From positions 64,001-128,000 of the IMG/VR virus record IMGVR_UViG_3300021514_000002: DNA of 64,000 bases. The stretch is one strand, 5' to 3'. Source of the DNA: a virus. Its lineage: Duplodnaviria > Caudoviricetes. Under the pieces are notes generated by a model. It did not search any database. It saw only the letters and a list, made by a program, of their open reading frames with translations, and was not told the origin of the DNA. Within the stretch, counting starts at the first letter, position 1; each line of letters begins with the position of its first letter. Shown here piece by piece: positions 5,180-18,593 of this stretch. The position numbers were made by a program, and so were the translations under genes.

Positions 5180-5270
5180 TGGCTCCCTCGGGTGGATTCG
5201 AACCACCATAACGCTTTCAAGTATACGCTTGTTTAACAGACAAGTCTCTTACCAGTTAGAGTACAAGGGA
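5180..5270 (-). tRNA. tRNA-Asn(GTT) with 20-nt variable region
   Basis: TCCCTTG/CGAGGGA-G-CCA; CTTGT-CT GTT AA-ACAAG; variable region CGTATACTTGAAAGCGTTAT. Confidence 0.88.
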
Positions 5271-5277
5271 ATAAATT

Positions 5278-5353
5278 TGGCTGGCACGGTGGGATTCGAA
5301 CCCACATACACTTGTTTAACAGACAAGCCTCCTACCGGATAGAGCACACGCCA
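5278..5353 (-). tRNA. tRNA-Asn(GTT)
   Basis: TGGCGTG/CGTGCCA-G-CCA; same anticodon arm as the neighbouring Asn; 5-nt variable loop. Confidence 0.93.
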
Positions 5354-5469
5354 ATAACTTTTTACTTATCAAACCATAGATGTAAAATCCTTTCAACTTC
5401 ATCTAACAATTCGTTCATTTCTTTAATTAATTCATCTTTACTTTTCATTTCTTTTCCTATCTTTCAATT

Positions 5470-5557
5470 TGGTGCCAGCAGTAGGATTCGAACCTACAGT
5501 GAGTTTTCACCCGCCGGATTACAAAACCGGTGCAATACCTGATTATGCGATACTGGC
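5470..5557 (-). tRNA. tRNA-Thr(TGT) with long variable arm
   Basis: GCCAGTA/TGCTGGC-A-CCA; CCGGT-TT TGT AA-TCCGG with a U31-U39 mismatch; variable arm GTGA-AAAC-TCAC. Confidence 0.82.
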
Positions 5558-5718
5558 AATTGTACTACTTTGCGACATTTCAGCCCTCGTCAAATATAGC
5601 ACGTATTCGTTTACCTAAAGCAGCAGCCTGTTCTCTTACATGTTTAGAACTTTCAAGCTGTTCAGGTGTAATTTCTTTTTGTTCAAATTCTTTGGCACCT
5701 TCACCAACAAATTTTAAA

Positions 5719-6057
5719 TTAGGAAACGCTTCTTTCATGTTCATGTTTTTCACCTATATAATATTTTAATCTTTTAATAACTTCTTCGCTGTATTCTTTA
5801 CCTTTAGTATCTAATAAAGACATTTCAATTTTTAAAAGAATTGTTTTAATATTCCAGTTACTGATTAAACCGTTTTCATAAAAATCGATCCAATCAATAA
5901 CCATATTTTGTTTTTCAAATTCATCAATAATAAAATCAAGGGGTAAACCATGTGTTTCTACTATTTTAAAAACACCTTTTATTACTTGTTTATTATCTGA
6001 TGTTATCCCTGAAGTGTCAAGGTGTTTCTTTTTCCTACCGCGTTTGGCGATTTCATT
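5719..6057 (-). CDS. Small protein with an AlaRS-like segment; start codon uncertain
   Basis: Frame open from 6057 to 5719 reads GVFKIVETHGLPLDFIIDEFEKQNMVIDWIDF, resembling the F-x-L-YDTxGFPxD...VDxxGF segment of alanyl-tRNA synthetase; first in-frame ATG only at 5904. Confidence 0.5.
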   Translation of the reverse strand, partial: NEIAKRGRKKKHLDTSGITSDNKQVIKGVFKIVETHGLPLDFIIDEFEKQNMVIDWIDFYENGLISNWNIKTILLKIEMSLLDTKGKEYSEEVIKRLKYYIGEKHEHERSVS

Positions 6058-6060
6058 TCA

Positions 6061-6276
6061 TTATCCCCCGTCTTTAGATTCTTCAATAAGGTTTAAATGT
6101 TTTCTTATCCATCGCATGAATAATATTGCTTTGTCTTCACTATTAAATGCTGCAGTGCCTGCATCACTTATTGGTACAGGAAATTCAAATCCACATTCAG
6201 TAACGTACCATAATTCGCCTTCTTTATAAAATAAAAACTTTACTACTTTACCTTTAACCATATCTTTAATAGACAT
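6061..6276 (-). CDS. Hypothetical protein
   Basis: ORF with RBS between tRNA genes. Confidence 0.7.
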   Translation of the reverse strand: MSIKDMVKGKVVKFLFYKEGELWYVTECGFEFPVPISDAGTAAFNSEDKAILFMRWIRKHLNLIEESKDGG

Positions 6277-6294
6277 TTTCTTCTTCCTAGTTTG

Positions 6295-6367
6295 TGGAGC
6301 AGACGGGATTTGAACCCGCCGCAGAAAATCTTGCCAGAATTTCTCGTCCCCTTAGACATACTGCCCC
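6295..6367 (-). tRNA. tRNA-Ala(GGC), no encoded CCA
   Basis: GGGGCAG/CTGCTCC-A with G3-U70; loop CT GGC AA; followed by CAA instead of CCA. Confidence 0.87.
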
Positions 6368-6376
6368 GTTGTTGTT

Positions 6377-6451
6377 TGGTAGCCCCGTCAAGACTCGAAC
6401 TTGACTCTAACGGTTATCAGCCGTTTGTAATCACCCATATACTACGGGGCT
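6377..6451 (-). tRNA. tRNA-Ile(GAT)
   Basis: AGCCCCG/CGGGGCT-A-CCA; AACGG-CT GAT AA-CCGTT. Confidence 0.94.
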
Positions 6452-6517
6452 ATAGCCGTCTTTTACTGCTGTCATACAGCACCTACAAGTAGGAGGTCGA
6501 TTACAACGGTCGCCTAT
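6452..6517 (-). ncRNA. Structured RNA element abutting the 5' end of tRNA-Ile
   Basis: Closing stems ATAG/CTAT and CCGT/ACGG enclose hairpins CCTA-CTTG-TAGG and TGCTGT-ATG-ACAGCA. Confidence 0.4.
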
Positions 6518-6615
6518 TTTAATATAATCTTTATTCTTCCACTCAGTCCGGTAACTAGTATGGATGTGGGAGGCTCATTCAACCTGTGTACTATATTAAA
6601 ATTCTTTTATACTAA

Positions 6616-6939
6616 TTACTTCTTATCTGGATACTGTGCATCCAGTTCATCAATGTAAGCGTAAGGACTTTGCCCTGGCTTAAATATTTTGATATTCTTA
6701 AAACCATTATCTTCGGTAATAAGACTATCTTTTTCATCAATGGAACCACGATGTTTTGCACCATATTTTCCTTCAACTTTACCAGTCGCGGGATTTAAAT
6801 CACCCCATTTAATATGAGGATCTCCCATTGGTTCTACTGCATACGTTTTTCCTGTTCTGAAAGAAACAATCATATGTCTTCCAGTATCTTCGGTTTTTTC
6901 AAAAAACTTCTTTCTAAATTCTGGTGACAACATTGTCAT
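6616..6939 (-). CDS. Hypothetical protein (start trimmed to MTMLSPEF)
   Basis: The longer ORF call runs through tRNA-Lys; RBS AGGAG precedes the ATG at 6939. Confidence 0.7.
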   Translation of the reverse strand: MTMLSPEFRKKFFEKTEDTGRHMIVSFRTGKTYAVEPMGDPHIKWGDLNPATGKVEGKYGAKHRGSIDEKDSLITEDNGFKNIKIFKPGQSPYAYIDELDAQYPDKK

Positions 6940-6959
6940 TCTCCTTTTTATTATAAATT

Positions 6960-7035
6960 TGGTGGACTGCCCCAGCCACGATCTGGGAACCTCTCGATTA
7001 AAAGTCGAGTACTCTGCCAATTGAGTTAGCAGTCC
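6960..7035 (-). tRNA. tRNA-Lys(TTT) with atypical T loop
   Basis: GGACTGC/GCAGTCC-A-CCA; CTCGA-CT TTT AA-TCGAG; T arm CCCAG-ATCGTGG-CTGGG. Confidence 0.88.
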
Positions 7036-7040
7036 TAATC

Positions 7041-7664
7041 TTAATATTCTATTCCCCATTCATTTAATGTCGTTTTGACTCTGTTATAATTGTTACCCTT
7101 TGCCGCCAATCCAAGCTTTAATAAACATTGTCTAATATTACCAGTTTCTATATACGTTTTAACTATCTGCTCTGCCGTAATAGGTTCTTTAGTTACTTTC
7201 TTTTTATTTCTACCACGCCAAGTAAGTGTTAAACTATGACAATTGGGACATAACCCTTCAAGGTTCCCCCTTTCATTATTTTGATTATCCCCATCTTTAT
7301 GTTCTAGTTCAAGAACTAATGGTTGATTTAACCATCTGTCCAGTTTACATCTATTACATTTATGTTCCTGTTCAAGAAAAACTCGCTTACGAATCCTTCC
7401 AAACTTCAAACTACTAAAATCTTCCGCTAGTAGTTTAGTTTCCCAAGTCTTCTTTCGTTTTTCTATCATATTTTCTATTACTATTGGATCTAATAATGGG
7501 GTCTTCAATCTCCCCTCCTGCATAGCACTCTTAACGCTATTAGAAATTTTTCTTTTTGTTTCGGCAGTCTTGATTCTACTGTTTGCACATCCACGGGAAC
7601 AAAACTTCCCACTTCCGAACGTACCATCATGCTCTTTATTGCATTTTATATTTTTACATTTCAT
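7041..7664 (-). CDS. HNH homing endonuclease
   Basis: CNRC...LELEHKDGDNQNNERGNLEGLCPNCHS; inserted between tRNAs; late promoter TATAAATA at 7684-7691. Confidence 0.88.
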   Translation of the reverse strand: MKCKNIKCNKEHDGTFGSGKFCSRGCANSRIKTAETKRKISNSVKSAMQEGRLKTPLLDPIVIENMIEKRKKTWETKLLAEDFSSLKFGRIRKRVFLEQEHKCNRCKLDRWLNQPLVLELEHKDGDNQNNERGNLEGLCPNCHSLTLTWRGRNKKKVTKEPITAEQIVKTYIETGNIRQCLLKLGLAAKGNNYNRVKTTLNEWGIEY

Positions 7665-7720
7665 ATTCGTACCCCTTTTAACTTATTTATATCAATAGTT
7701 AAAAAGTGTGCGATTAAAAT

Positions 7721-7794
7721 TGGTGGAGCTACAGGGAATCGAACCCTGGTCTTCGCGGTGCAAGCGCAACGTAATCCCGTTATACTACAGCCCC
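7721..7794 (-). tRNA. tRNA-Ala(TGC)
   Basis: GGGGCTG/TAGCTCC-A-CCA with G3-U70; loop CT TGC AC. Confidence 0.95.
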
Positions 7795-7798
7795 AAAA

Positions 7799-7877
7799 TG
7801 TAGTCCCTATCGCTGACGTACTTCACATACGCTTAGGATGATTACCATCGTCCCAGTTATGATAGGATTTACCTACA
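7799..7877 (-). ncRNA. Structured three-way-junction RNA between tRNA-Lys and tRNA-Ala
   Basis: TGTAG/CTACA and TCCTATC/GATAGGG stems enclose GATG-GTAAT-CATC and GCGTA-TGTGAAG-TACGT hairpins. Confidence 0.45.
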
Positions 7878-7934
7878 CAAACTAATCTACTTGTTAAAGA
7901 ACAAATACACCATCAAGGGTATATTTTAAAAACT

Positions 7935-8020
7935 TGGTGGGGCCGCAGGGATTCGAACCCTGAATGCGTATTCCGCGCCGGATTAAAAGTCCGGTATCCT
8001 AGCCGTTAGATGACAGCCCC
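7935..8020 (-). tRNA. tRNA-Lys(TTT) with long variable arm
   Basis: GGGGCTG/CGGCCCC-A-CCA; CCGGA-CT TTT AA-TCCGG; 15-nt variable region with GCG-GAATA-CGC hairpin. Confidence 0.9.
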
Positions 8021-8027
8021 ATAAATC

Positions 8028-8642
8028 TTAAACTAATCTTTTGAATAATGCATCGTTACCGTTACATTTTTCTTTAAGTCGATCAATCCATTTTCTATTC
8101 TTAATCTTAAACATTCTAACAATTTTGTTTTTCTTGTTGTGATACTTACATACCACCCCTTCAAACGTCATATCTTCTAATGTTCCATTTTTAATAGAAG
8201 TAACTAAATCTTCTGTTAACACACCTTTGTATAAAACTTTGGGTATACCTACATCTTCAAATAATTCTATGAAGTGTAACGGTTCAACCATTCCACGTTT
8301 ATACACATTGACATCAATCAATGTCACTTGGTGTTCTTCGTTCATATCATGCGAGCCAGCAAATGAGCTCTCACCATGAAACTCAAAAAATACTACTACA
8401 CGTTCCCACTTCTTATTAGAAAATATTTCAGCTAATCGTTCCTGATGTTTTTCTAATATTATATCAACCGCTTCACCCAACATAGGATGTTTATTATCAA
8501 TCAGTTGATTTCTTGAACCAAATTTATAAAACCCTTTCTTCTTTGACCATTCTGCTCTTATATTAGAACCGTCAAGTTTATCAAACACTACTACTTTTGT
8601 TCTTTCTAACTTTGTACTTATTGATGGATATGATTTCATCAT
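8028..8642 (-). CDS. ATP-dependent RNA ligase family nucleotidyltransferase (standalone adenylation domain)
   Basis: Motif I DKLDGSN, FGSRN, FFEFHG, LIDV, motif IV FEGVVCK, motif V FKIK. Confidence 0.82.
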   Translation of the reverse strand: MMKSYPSISTKLERTKVVVFDKLDGSNIRAEWSKKKGFYKFGSRNQLIDNKHPMLGEAVDIILEKHQERLAEIFSNKKWERVVVFFEFHGESSFAGSHDMNEEHQVTLIDVNVYKRGMVEPLHFIELFEDVGIPKVLYKGVLTEDLVTSIKNGTLEDMTFEGVVCKYHNKKNKIVRMFKIKNRKWIDRLKEKCNGNDALFKRLV

Positions 8643-13638: not shown

Positions 13639-14802
13639 CTACGAAAGGCTAACCTTCCGTAGGACTTCTTTGCGTAAATCTTCGATAGCTTCGCCGATTT
13701 GTTTACCTTCCAATCTTTCCTTTTGTCCAGTTGTCAACATCTCAAACTCAACAACAATTCCTGCTTTAAACATCTTCAAGAATTTAAAGGCAATTGAATG
13801 AATAAAATGGTTATCAAAAATAATCAACGTAGTTGCTGTTTTATGAAACGTAGTAGGCAATTTCCATGCATGGACTTTGTCTAATACTTTAATAAAACCT
13901 TCCGCAGTATCAAAATCATTAGAATGATCCAAAATATCATTAATCATAGTGCAAGACATTTTTAATGCATTTTTAACAGATCTTGGAGCCTTCAATCGTT
14001 CAAGCATGTTTAATACTTGTTCAGTATTGGAGCCAGCAGCAAGAATTACCATTCGGTCAATAAAATCACTGAACAGTAAGACAGCCCTGTCTAGTGTTTC
14101 GTTGGTTTGAATTGGTAATTTGTTTTCATCAAACAATTCTGGAAACAATACATCAAGGGCATTAACATCATGTAGAACCATAAAAAACTGCATAGGAAAA
14201 TCTTCCATCACTGCTTTTTCTAATTCAGCGAAAACACGTTCTGGGGTTAATTCATCCAATTCACCAGACTTTGTTAGTTGTGCCATCAATTTGAGCGTAT
14301 CAGTAGAAACACTAAAATTGTATCGTGCTGCAAATCTTGCCACGCGAAGAACACGTACTGGATCTTCTGCAAACGCATCACTAACATGCCGAAGCAGACC
14401 GCTTTCTAAATCCTGCATCCCATTAAATGGATCAATAACAAAATGTGTACTTCGTGTCTCTTGGAATTTTTCCCAATTGTCACGGTTTACCGCCATTGAA
14501 TTGACAGTCAAATCCCGACGGAACAAGTCATCTCTCAATGTTACAGAAGGGTCAAAGTCGGTTTCAAAGCCATGGTAGCCAGAACCAATTTTCCGTTCGG
14601 TACGCGCCAGTGCAAATTCTTGACCTTTTTCGTCAAGGAAAACAGGAAAATCAGCGCCTACTTGTTGAAAGCCGTCAGCAAGCATTTCTTCTGGTGTTGA
14701 ACCAACAACAACAAAATCCATATCCTTAACTGGCCGACCGAGTAAGGTATCCCTGACGGCACCGCCGACTACGAAAGTTTCTGTGTGAGTGTGAGTTGTC
14801 AT
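13639..14802 (-). CDS. cca: tRNA nucleotidyltransferase (CCA-adding enzyme, class II)
   Basis: [39 protein letters not shown]. Confidence 0.93.
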
Positions 14803-17693: not shown

Positions 17694-18593
17694 ATGGGAA
17701 CAAGAATACAAGGTAAAAAAAATACTAAATTTACAAATGACGAAATTTATAAGTTGTGTATAAAATATAATATTGAGTTATTAGATAATGAATATGTTGG
17801 TAATAATTATTGCCATACTTGGTTTTGTAAAGAACATAAAAAAGAACAGGTTCAACGTTTAGATAAAATACAGAGAAGTGGTGGATTAAAATGTTGTAGT
17901 CATGCAAAAAAATTAGCAAGTAACAAACAAGAACTTGATGAAATAGAAAAACAACTCAATATTACTTTATTATCAGAATATTTTTCAAATAGTAAACCTC
18001 TAACATGGAAATGTAATAAACATAATAAAATTTTTAATAGATCGTTGCAAATTATTCGCAGAACCTCACAACCCCCATGTTGTAAATGTGAAGAAAAATT
18101 AACCATAGTAAAAAATATAATTGAACCATTGGGGTATGTTTTATTAGATAAGGAATATAGTGGCTCGACGCATACTTGGTATTGCGTCCATCATGATAGA
18201 ACATATTACAATAGACGTACTACATATAAGGATTTTGAACATGGACAATTATTAAAATGTTGTGCAAATGAAAGAAATAGTGGTAAAAATCACCCTAATT
18301 ATAATCATAATGTGACAGATGAACAACGTGCAAATGATCGACGTTCTCAAAAAAATAAAACTTGGAGACAACAAGTGATAAAGCGTGATAACTTAACATG
18401 TCAACGTTGTAGTATATCGGAAACTAAAATAGTTGCACATCATCTTGAAAATTATTTAGAAAATCCAGAACTACGATATGAACCATCTAATGGGATAACA
18501 TTGTGTGTCCCCTGTCATATAGCATTTCATTCTATATATGGCAAGGGGAATACAACAAAAATCCAAACCGAAGAATGGATCAACGATTACTAA
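17694..18593 (+). CDS. HNH homing endonuclease with Zn-ribbon repeats
   Basis: Repeated WxCxxH units; CQRC...AHHL...NGITLCVPCH; opposite strand to its neighbours; TATAAATA at 17654-17661; start moved to the ATG with a GGGGGA RBS. Confidence 0.85.
   Translation: MGTRIQGKKNTKFTNDEIYKLCIKYNIELLDNEYVGNNYCHTWFCKEHKKEQVQRLDKIQRSGGLKCCSHAKKLASNKQELDEIEKQLNITLLSEYFSNSKPLTWKCNKHNKIFNRSLQIIRRTSQPPCCKCEEKLTIVKNIIEPLGYVLLDKEYSGSTHTWYCVHHDRTYYNRRTTYKDFEHGQLLKCCANERNSGKNHPNYNHNVTDEQRANDRRSQKNKTWRQQVIKRDNLTCQRCSISETKIVAHHLENYLENPELRYEPSNGITLCVPCHIAFHSIYGKGNTTKIQTEEWINDY

Follow-up and report, generated by a model that had tools for sequence, protein, structure and literature searches.

In bacteria, long variable arms are, according to textbooks and current reviews, restricted to the tRNAs for Leu, Ser, Tyr and Sec (PMC7609411). 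tRNAs encoded by phages are now recognised as counter-defence tools, and the escape mechanisms that we found published are substitutions in the anticodon arm or in the D loop. Among the nucleases concerned, AriB of the PARIS system has, in E. coli, Lys-UUU and Thr-UGU as prime targets and Asn-GUU and Thr-CGU as secondary ones, cutting between positions 40 and 41 in the motif U36-A-A-U-C/A41 (cut at the slash) and contacting U16-U17 (PMC12409363). The OLD nuclease of P2 has Thr-UGU as its preferred substrate, with Lys-UUU, Asn-GUU and Val-UAC being cut as well (PMC12445682), and PrrC is an anticodon nuclease of tRNA-Lys (PMC2610378). The stretch studied here, hereafter the window, comprises 64,000 nucleotides (bases 64001-128000) of the IMG/VR virus record IMGVR_UViG_3300021514_000002, and encodes three tRNAs, for Lys(UUU), Thr(UGU) and Asn(GUU), which share their anticodons with these PARIS and OLD targets and carry long variable arms. 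Both the restriction of such arms in bacteria and the targets of AriB and PrrC had been stated in a preliminary description of the window, and the literature agrees on either point. Long-armed tRNAs of these three kinds form a class that is widespread, mostly viral and rare in cells, and we tentatively propose that their arm helps them to evade tRNA-targeting defence.

The three genes were located by ARAGORN, and by Rfam at the same positions, exactly where the preliminary description had placed them (Table 1). With 55-57.5 bits they belong to family RF00005 (gathering score 29; E about 1e-9 for the three) and adopt a cloverleaf structure, with a 7-bp acceptor stem, a 5-bp T stem, the T loop UUCGAAU, U33 and an encoded CCA end. 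Their variable regions, of 15 nt in Lys, 16 nt in Thr and 20 nt in Asn, correspond to the class II architecture (at least 10 nt arranged as a stem-loop), the stems being clear in Lys and Thr and imperfect in Asn. These lengths and the GCG/CGC stem of Lys were recovered by our parse as previously described, and the ARAGORN structure likewise displayed the GTGA/TCAC stem (drawn as GUGA/UCAC) and the U31-U39 mismatch reported for Thr. The Thr arm may be read in two registers, either as GGUGA/UCACU closed by an AAAC loop or as GGU-GAAA-ACU followed by a CACU tail, the latter being typical of the viral family described below. The Asn region is set in a CGUA...UAU frame common to long Asn tRNAs of other viral contigs; in isolation this arm pairs weakly, and the cloverleaf of the Asn tRNA is not favoured over those of shuffled sequences (z -1.1). 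In all three tRNAs A15 pairs with the U at the end of the arm (A15-U48), and the core fold is therefore kept. A reading as intron-bearing tRNAs was ruled out, the insert being located between the anticodon and T stems, and so was a reading as allo-tRNAs, since the acceptor/T branch is 7/5 in all three as opposed to 8/4 or 9/3.

In E. coli, lysine identity depends on the anticodon and A73, asparagine identity on the anticodon and G73, and threonine identity on the anticodon together with G1-C72 and C2-G71 (PMC9976931). The window tRNAs carry each of these sets in full, UUU with A73, GUU with G73, and UGU with G1-C72/C2-G71. In the wider viral families, A73 is found in 72 of 93 long Lys tRNAs, G1:C72 in 88 of 89 long Thr tRNAs (with U73 in 74 of the 89) and G73 in 104 of 116 long Asn tRNAs (with U1:A72 in 72), and a long Gln family displays U1:A72 in 32 of its 38 members. 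None of the three has the identity of bacterial tRNA-Ser (G1-C72, G2-C71, G73 and about one unpaired 3' nucleotide): Thr departs from it by C2-G71 and A73, Asn by U1-A72 and C2-G71, although it does carry G73, and Lys by A73 and a 3-nt tail. When compared with the marks of tRNA-Leu (A73, A15-U48, G18G19 and A20a), Lys and Thr possess A73 and A15-U48 with D loops unlike those of Leu, and Asn has G73. Demand for these tRNAs is high, AAA (52.6 per 1000, rank 2), AAU (43.3, rank 4) and ACA (28.3, rank 10) being among the most used codons of the phage, which are headed by GAA (59.6, rank 1); AAA, AAU/AAC and ACA together account for about 14% of its own codons. Based on structure, identity marks, conservation and codon demand, the three genes very probably encode functional, cognate tRNAs for lysine, threonine and asparagine, whose expression and charging are presumed.

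The family statistics were drawn from 4,265 well-parsed viral tRNAs. In these, a single arm design is common to the long tRNAs for Lys, Thr and Asn, consisting of one unpaired base, a stem of 3-4 bp, a loop and a tail of 3-4 nt. The loop is most often GAAA, the commonest one, or else of another GNRA type, and tails are commonly CAUC, CAC or CACC; the unpaired 3' side thus measures 3-4 nt, compared with 3 in Tyr, 2 in Leu and 1 in Ser. Arms with at least 3 bp make up 82-87% of the real sequences against 31-43% of shuffles, and all Watson-Crick pair types are seen at every position of the stem. In an RNAalifold alignment of 37 long Lys tRNAs, among them the ones from the window, its relative and Serratia phage BF, the arm helix is within the consensus, and two of its pairs show 18 and 13 compensatory double changes. 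To judge from these sequences, the extra arm is under selection. Within the family the window tRNAs diverge to some degree: Lys fits the viral class with GAAUA as its loop and AUU as its tail, Thr fits it in the GGU-GAAA-ACU-CACU register, and Asn, with a GAAA loop and a UUAU tail, fits it loosely. A nearest-neighbour comparison of the tRNA bodies gave no support for a descent from tRNA-Tyr or tRNA-Ser, being uninformative at an identity of 0.71-0.74 for every class. As a separate observation, the long Asn (5180-5270) matches the tRNA-Ser(UGA) of Bacillus phage 0524phi7-1 (L850:144-233) at 25 of 26 positions, covering the D arm and the 5' strand of the anticodon stem; both arms begin with CGUA and the acceptor stems are completely different, a likeness that may reflect a chimeric origin or a shared scaffold.

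The preliminary description had also pointed to short copies with the same anticodon for Lys and Asn, and ARAGORN places them at 6960-7035 and 5278-5353, respectively. No short Thr-UGU gene exists among the 45 tRNA genes of the whole genome, and the long form is its only Thr-UGU gene. The same arrangement is found in the closest complete relative that we found, a 344-kb record with terminal repeats (G001), in which Thr-UGU is present in long form only and Lys-UUU and Asn-GUU are each represented by one long and one short gene; long and short pairs, often adjacent, also occur there for Glu-UUC, Met, Ile-GAU and Gln-UUG. Between the two phages, the long tRNA-Lys genes that match best, the only ones scored, are about 78% identical, and the arms of Lys, Thr and Asn differ in sequence with the hairpin kept. 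The short Lys(UUU) of the window has A54 and U58 in its T loop in place of U54 and A58. Its ortholog in the relative (L834:10863-10938, minus strand; 88% identical) has a similarly odd loop, AUCGUUG, and the anticodon CUU, one scaffold having therefore been switched between both Lys anticodons. Three further non-canonical long arms are found in the genome outside the window, on Met-CAU, Trp-CCA and Glu-UUC (90, 87 and 85 nt, respectively), the last with a clear ortholog in the relative.

The distribution of the class was assessed by scanning IMG/VR with patterns that link the anticodon loop to the T loop over a long gap, a match being taken as true when ARAGORN called a long-armed tRNA with the targeted anticodon. 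The measures used were the share of true tRNAs among the matches listed and the bystander tRNAs in the fetched loci, and not raw match counts. Among the matches listed, 95 of 116 were true for Lys-UUU, 107 of 117 for Asn-GUU, 67 of 120 for Thr-UGU (a noisier 6-base pattern), 52 of 116 for Gln-UUG (also a 6-base pattern) and 18 of 117 for Arg-UCU. When the Lys pattern was applied to 185,579 prokaryote species genomes, the 120 matches listed included about 10 long-armed Lys tRNAs from bacteria, of which several lie in phage-like arrays of 10-16 tRNAs, besides 87 sequences that are not tRNAs and some 20 archaeal intron-bearing tRNAs with inserts in the anticodon loop. Roughly 1 in 7 to 1 in 10 of the Lys-UUU, Thr-UGU and Asn-GUU tRNAs of the sampled viral contigs are long-armed, and in an unbiased control of 394 viral tRNAs non-canonical long arms occurred only on Lys-UUU (2/14) and Ile-UAU (2/8). 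In the IMG/VR loci the long form is accompanied by a short copy of the same anticodon in 29 of 93 cases for Lys and 29 of 103 for Asn; for Thr this is so in only 6 of 67, and long Thr-UGU is therefore usually the sole copy.

Cultured phages also carry such genes. Serratia phage BF (KY630187) and the Erwinia pEa_SNUABM phages have an 87-nt tRNA-Lys(UUU) whose anticodon arm is identical to that of the window Lys, and the long Asn of a relative can be aligned, over the length of its arm, to the tRNA-Asn found in phiKZ-like and XacN1 phages; in GenBank these genes are labelled plainly as tRNA-Lys or tRNA-Asn. A comparison of the whole tRNA cluster with the phage collection (megablast and blastn) gave no match, single tRNAs alone producing short ones. 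In the literature on phage tRNAs and tRNA nucleases we found no description of long-armed Lys, Thr or Asn tRNAs, and the class appears to be unpublished. Other anticodons deserve mention on their own account. Ile-UAU has the highest long-arm fraction among class-I anticodons, and the long-armed tRNA-Ile(UAU) of unrelated viral contigs (L053, L075/L834:13347-13438, L128, L194 and L201) has a conserved arm sequence around CCAGAUUAGCG. Distant megaphage relatives of 300-480 kb carry long-armed Gly(UCC) and Val(UAC) in place of Lys, Thr and Asn (L001, L002, L005 and L010, about 84 nt; L013:7998-8085), and Serratia phage BF additionally has a tRNA-Gly(UCC) of 83-85 nt.

Taken together, we propose that the three genes are functional cognate Lys, Thr and Asn tRNAs of a mostly viral class whose arm evades tRNA-targeting defence, a statement that, as a whole, we put forward as tentative. 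The phage tRNAs would still insert lysine, threonine and asparagine, and each consists of an ordinary tRNA body into which a compact hairpin is added between the anticodon arm and the T arm, the tail of which ends in the base pairing with position 15. The phage lineage would deliberately retain two architectures, long and short for Lys-UUU and Asn-GUU, and long only for Thr-UGU. As its likeliest purpose, the arm would alter the shape of the tRNA beside the anticodon stem, such that Toprim nucleases of the PARIS AriB or P2 OLD type, as well as PrrC-like anticodon nucleases, would bind or cut it poorly; charging would be preserved, as synthetases read mainly the anticodon and the acceptor end. 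Evasion as the role of the arm is a plausible candidate that, in our estimation, falls short of probable. We may further hypothesize a shield based on shape, in which the arm, projecting out of the core beside positions 40-48, stops Toprim-type anticodon-stem nucleases from docking while a host-like cut site is kept, and the phages hedge with one shielded and one ordinary copy of the tRNAs needed most; in this specific form the idea is possible, although somewhat unlikely.

The much higher frequency of the class in viruses than in cells speaks in favour of evasion, and another part of the evidence comes from the anticodons on which long arms occur. In loci not selected on Lys, Thr or Asn anticodons, and with no correction for relatedness, these three anticodons were long-armed in 22 of 153 tRNAs against 48 of 943 for other class-I anticodons (odds ratio 3.1, p 1e-4). 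The share was above average for Val-UAC as well, and Ala-UGC, Asp-GUC, Arg-UCU, Gly-GCC and Glu-CUC were never long in this sample. Isoacceptors charged by the same synthetase differ, with 6 of 59 for Gly-UCC against none of 45 for Gly-GCC and 9 of 59 for Thr-UGU against 1 of 20 for Thr-GGU, and tolerance of the synthetase alone therefore fails to explain the pattern. The cut site itself offers a further indication. U39C40 is kept in 58 of 91 long viral Lys tRNAs compared with 40 of 115 short ones (p 4e-5), and in 40 of 89 long Thr tRNAs compared with 27 of 91 short ones (p 0.045), which is the expectation if the arm replaces mutations of the cut site; in viral Asn tRNAs retention did not differ significantly between long and short forms.

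Several observations weigh against a protective arm. Those of T5 are the only phage Lys, Thr and Asn tRNAs shown to neutralise PARIS, and they escape by base substitutions (PMC12409363); in the T5 genome (AY543070) they measure 75-78 nt and have variable loops of 5 nt. Likewise, phage Thr tRNAs evade P2 OLD through changes in the anticodon stem (PMC12445682). The window tRNAs themselves differ from those of E. coli, Lys by C41 and C16, Thr by C41 and U31.U39, and Asn by A39, and in tests with E. coli and T5 tRNAs such substitutions already lower cleavage (PMC12409363), so that the arm is possibly unneeded for escape. Long arms are also found on many other anticodons (Ile-UAU, Cys-GCA, Gly-UCC, Met, Trp, Glu and Gln). 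No nuclease link is known for Ile-UAU, Cys-GCA or Gly-UCC, and on the first two the enrichment equals that on the AriB targets. The enrichment is modest, half of the loci tested having been chosen for some long-armed tRNA and kinship being ignored.

The same breadth of anticodons is what would be expected if the arm were a structural or historical feature with no part in defence, persisting because it is harmless, for example as a hairpin that stabilises the fold under incomplete host modification, or as a scaffold spread by duplication followed by anticodon change. Only about half of the tRNA-Leu in the sampled viral contigs are long-armed, the remainder having lost the arm, and for that reason gain and loss of arms look fluid in phages. 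Furthermore, the bodies of long Lys, Thr and Asn tRNAs are as similar to each other as to their short cognates, and the codons read by the enriched anticodons end in A or are abundant; phages often have duplicate genes for these, and such duplicates are free to diverge. Drift, however, does not account for a covarying and well-formed stem, for recurrent GNRA-type loops with a conserved tail, for rarity in cells combined with a bias in anticodons and isoacceptors, or for the pairing of long and short genes kept in two diverged phages, and we regard an arm without a defence role as unlikely.

GNRA-type loops are also classic recognition modules, and the mostly viral nature of the class would suit an arm acting as a mark of self or as a handle for a phage factor (a repair ligase, CCA enzyme, modification enzyme or synthetase-like protein), or one that spares phage tRNAs from a phage-encoded removal of host tRNAs. 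Immediately upstream of the long tRNA-Lys lies an RNA ligase gene, and the same genome encodes a CCA enzyme and contains a 192-aa open reading frame (ORF) resembling the core of class II synthetases. The adjacency of ligase and tRNA is, however, missing from G001 and from 20 relatives, the same arm design occurs in unrelated phages of very different gene content, and no partner protein was identified, all of which make a self mark or handle quite improbable, though less so than a recruitment of SerRS, LeuRS or TyrRS by the arm. In the latter case AAA, ACA and AAY would be partly read as Ser, Leu or Tyr, a deliberate mistranslation like that of allo-tRNAs or the nev-tRNAs of nematodes; the preliminary description had offered it, for SerRS and LeuRS, as its alternative. 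Serine identity does reside mainly in the variable arm, the anticodon being ignored (PMC9976931); the long Asn has G73 and matches the Bacillus phage tRNA-Ser(UGA) at 25/26 positions in the D arm and anticodon stem, and at the base of the arm; one register of the Thr arm leaves a Ser-like 3' tail of 0-1 nt; and A73 and A15-U48 of the long Lys are identity elements of Leu. Against this, G2-C71 of bacterial tRNA-Ser is missing in Thr and Asn, Lys and Thr have A73, the arms of the family leave 3-4 unpaired 3' nucleotides, unlike Ser (1) or Leu (2), and cognate acceptor-end marks are kept in the window tRNAs and across hundreds of viral examples. Since the long-armed tRNAs read the commonest codons of the phage, and Thr-UGU has no short back-up, deliberate mischarging is disfavoured, and we hold it to be very unlikely. 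That these genes are decaying, disused duplicates, as the badly paired Asn arm, the z of -1.1 and the presence of short Lys and Asn copies might suggest, is barely credible, given that every helix is intact, as are the T loop, U33, the CCA end and A15-U48, that Thr-UGU exists in long form only, and that long genes of the same anticodons are kept in G001, with about 78% identity and compensatory arm changes in Lys.

The source record, of 363,531 bp, is rated complete in IMG/VR and encodes 45 tRNA genes and one tmRNA, the latter permuted and located at 233835-234219 of the genome, with the tag AANDAFFEETRLAA. The window has a G+C content of 35% and contains 11 ARAGORN tRNA genes, all on the minus strand. 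Hallmark genes of the phage include those for an NAD-dependent ligase, NAMPT, GroEL, a CCA-adding enzyme, an RNA-ligase-family protein and HNH endonucleases. The RNA-ligase-family ORF stops 7 nt upstream of the long tRNA-Lys, an adjacency not kept in the closest relative or in 20 relatives; with the CCA enzyme nearby, the context is one of tRNA maintenance. A phage-encoded synthetase for the long-armed tRNAs was also sought: no ThrRS-type match was obtained, and the only candidate is a fragment of a class II core, the 192-aa ORF in the upstream tRNA region of the genome (G000:C1:18737-19315, minus strand; L713:737-1315), which matches PF00152 with 26.5 bits and only over the part of the class II synthetase core (Asp/Lys/Asn) with motifs 1-2. 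Other tRNAs of the genome comprise two with the amber-reading anticodon CUA (G000:C1:252271-252344 and 252952-253023) and two tRNA-Leu genes, CAA and UAA, of 78 nt and with short variable regions (G000:C1:10753-10830 and 17762-17839). Within the window, a tRNA-Ala(GGC) was called by ARAGORN at 6294-6367 on the minus strand; its encoded CCA is incomplete, and it scored 31.3 bits in a genome-wide Rfam search and fell just below listing in the window-wide gathering search.

Table 1. Positions of the long-armed tRNAs, their variable regions and associated features (window coordinates, except where G000:C1 denotes genome positions outside the window)
Feature	Position	Strand	Characteristics	Basis
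tRNA-Asn(GUU), long	5180..5270	-	91 nt; U1-A72, G73	ARAGORN; Rfam RF00005 56 bits
Asn variable region	5208..5227	-	20 nt; imperfect stem and GAAA loop inside CGUA...UAU frame	parse
tRNA-Asn(GUU), short	5278..5353	-	76 nt; 7 nt from long copy, identical anticodon arm	ARAGORN
tRNA-Thr(UGU), long	5470..5557	-	88 nt; G1-C72, C2-G71, A73, U31.U39 mismatch	ARAGORN; Rfam RF00005 55 bits
Thr variable arm	5498..5513	-	16 nt; two possible registers	ARAGORN drawing; parse
Sigma-70-like promoter match	5992..6020	-	TTGACA-17-GATAAT; upstream of Thr/Asn tRNA group	consensus match only
tRNA-Lys(UUU), short	6960..7035	-	76 nt; unusual T loop AUCGUGG	ARAGORN
HNH endonuclease ORF	7041..7664	-	within tRNA cluster	PHROG matches
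tRNA-Lys(UUU), long	7935..8020	-	86 nt; A73, CCA encoded	ARAGORN; Rfam RF00005 57.5 bits; minimum free energy fold is the cloverleaf
Lys variable arm	7963..7977	-	15 nt; C, GCG stem, GAAUA loop, CGC, AUU tail	parse; RNAalifold consensus
RNA-ligase-family ORF	8028..8642	-	204 aa	PHROG 548; Pfam PF09414 35.2 bits
tRNA nucleotidyltransferase (CCA-adding enzyme) ORF	13639..14802	-		PHROG 2244, E 1.8e-99
tRNA-Met(CAU), long-armed	G000:C1:2344-2433		outside window	
tRNA-Trp(CCA), long-armed	G000:C1:5682-5768		outside window	
tRNA-Glu(UUC), long-armed	G000:C1:22831-22915		outside window	

The long-armed members of the sampled viral tRNAs for Lys-UUU, Thr-UGU and Asn-GUU break the rule on long arms, and do so with a shared, covarying design. 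If the arm does protect, it would represent a new principle of counter-defence, a second general route beside base substitutions, and a ready-made one to nuclease-proof tRNAs. Even if it does not, isotype calls that are sensitive to long arms may mislabel such genes, and the question arises of how an extra helix is accommodated by LysRS, AsnRS and ThrRS, class II synthetases that face the variable region. Cultured carriers make the question testable, namely Serratia phage BF and probably phiKZ, whose tRNA-Asn aligns across the long arm of a relative.

Among known systems, the anti-PARIS tRNAs of T5 are also phage-encoded, have the same three anticodons, and lie in a tRNA cluster with HNH endonucleases; the window tRNAs, too, differ from those of E. 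coli at the PARIS-relevant positions 41, 39 and 16. The T5 tRNAs rely, however, on substitutions with 5-nt loops, whereas the window tRNAs add an arm of 15-20 nt. The tRNA-Thr of phages resistant to P2 OLD shares the UGU anticodon, and that resistance requires a shortened anticodon stem together with a changed CNG motif (PMC12445682); the stem of the window Thr is shortened by U31.U39. In its arm, the class resembles bacterial class II tRNA-Tyr, with one unpaired 5' base, a 3-bp stem and 3-4 unpaired 3' bases, but in the window the anticodons and the discriminator and acceptor marks belong to Lys, Thr and Asn, the loops of the family are mostly GNRA and not UUCG, and its tails are CAYC and not UUC. 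Allo-tRNAs (PMC5389517) and the nev-tRNAs of nematodes (PMC3333845) likewise combine a long arm with an anticodon other than Leu or Ser; allo-tRNAs have 8/4 or 9/3 acceptor/T branches in contrast to the 7/5 found here, and both groups retain Ser or Leu identity and mistranslate, whereas the window tRNAs keep their cognate marks. Among cultured phages, Serratia phage BF (KY630187) has a tRNA-Lys whose anticodon arm equals that of the window Lys and whose long arm measures 15 nt; the hosts of the cultured long-arm phages are Enterobacterales or Pseudomonas.

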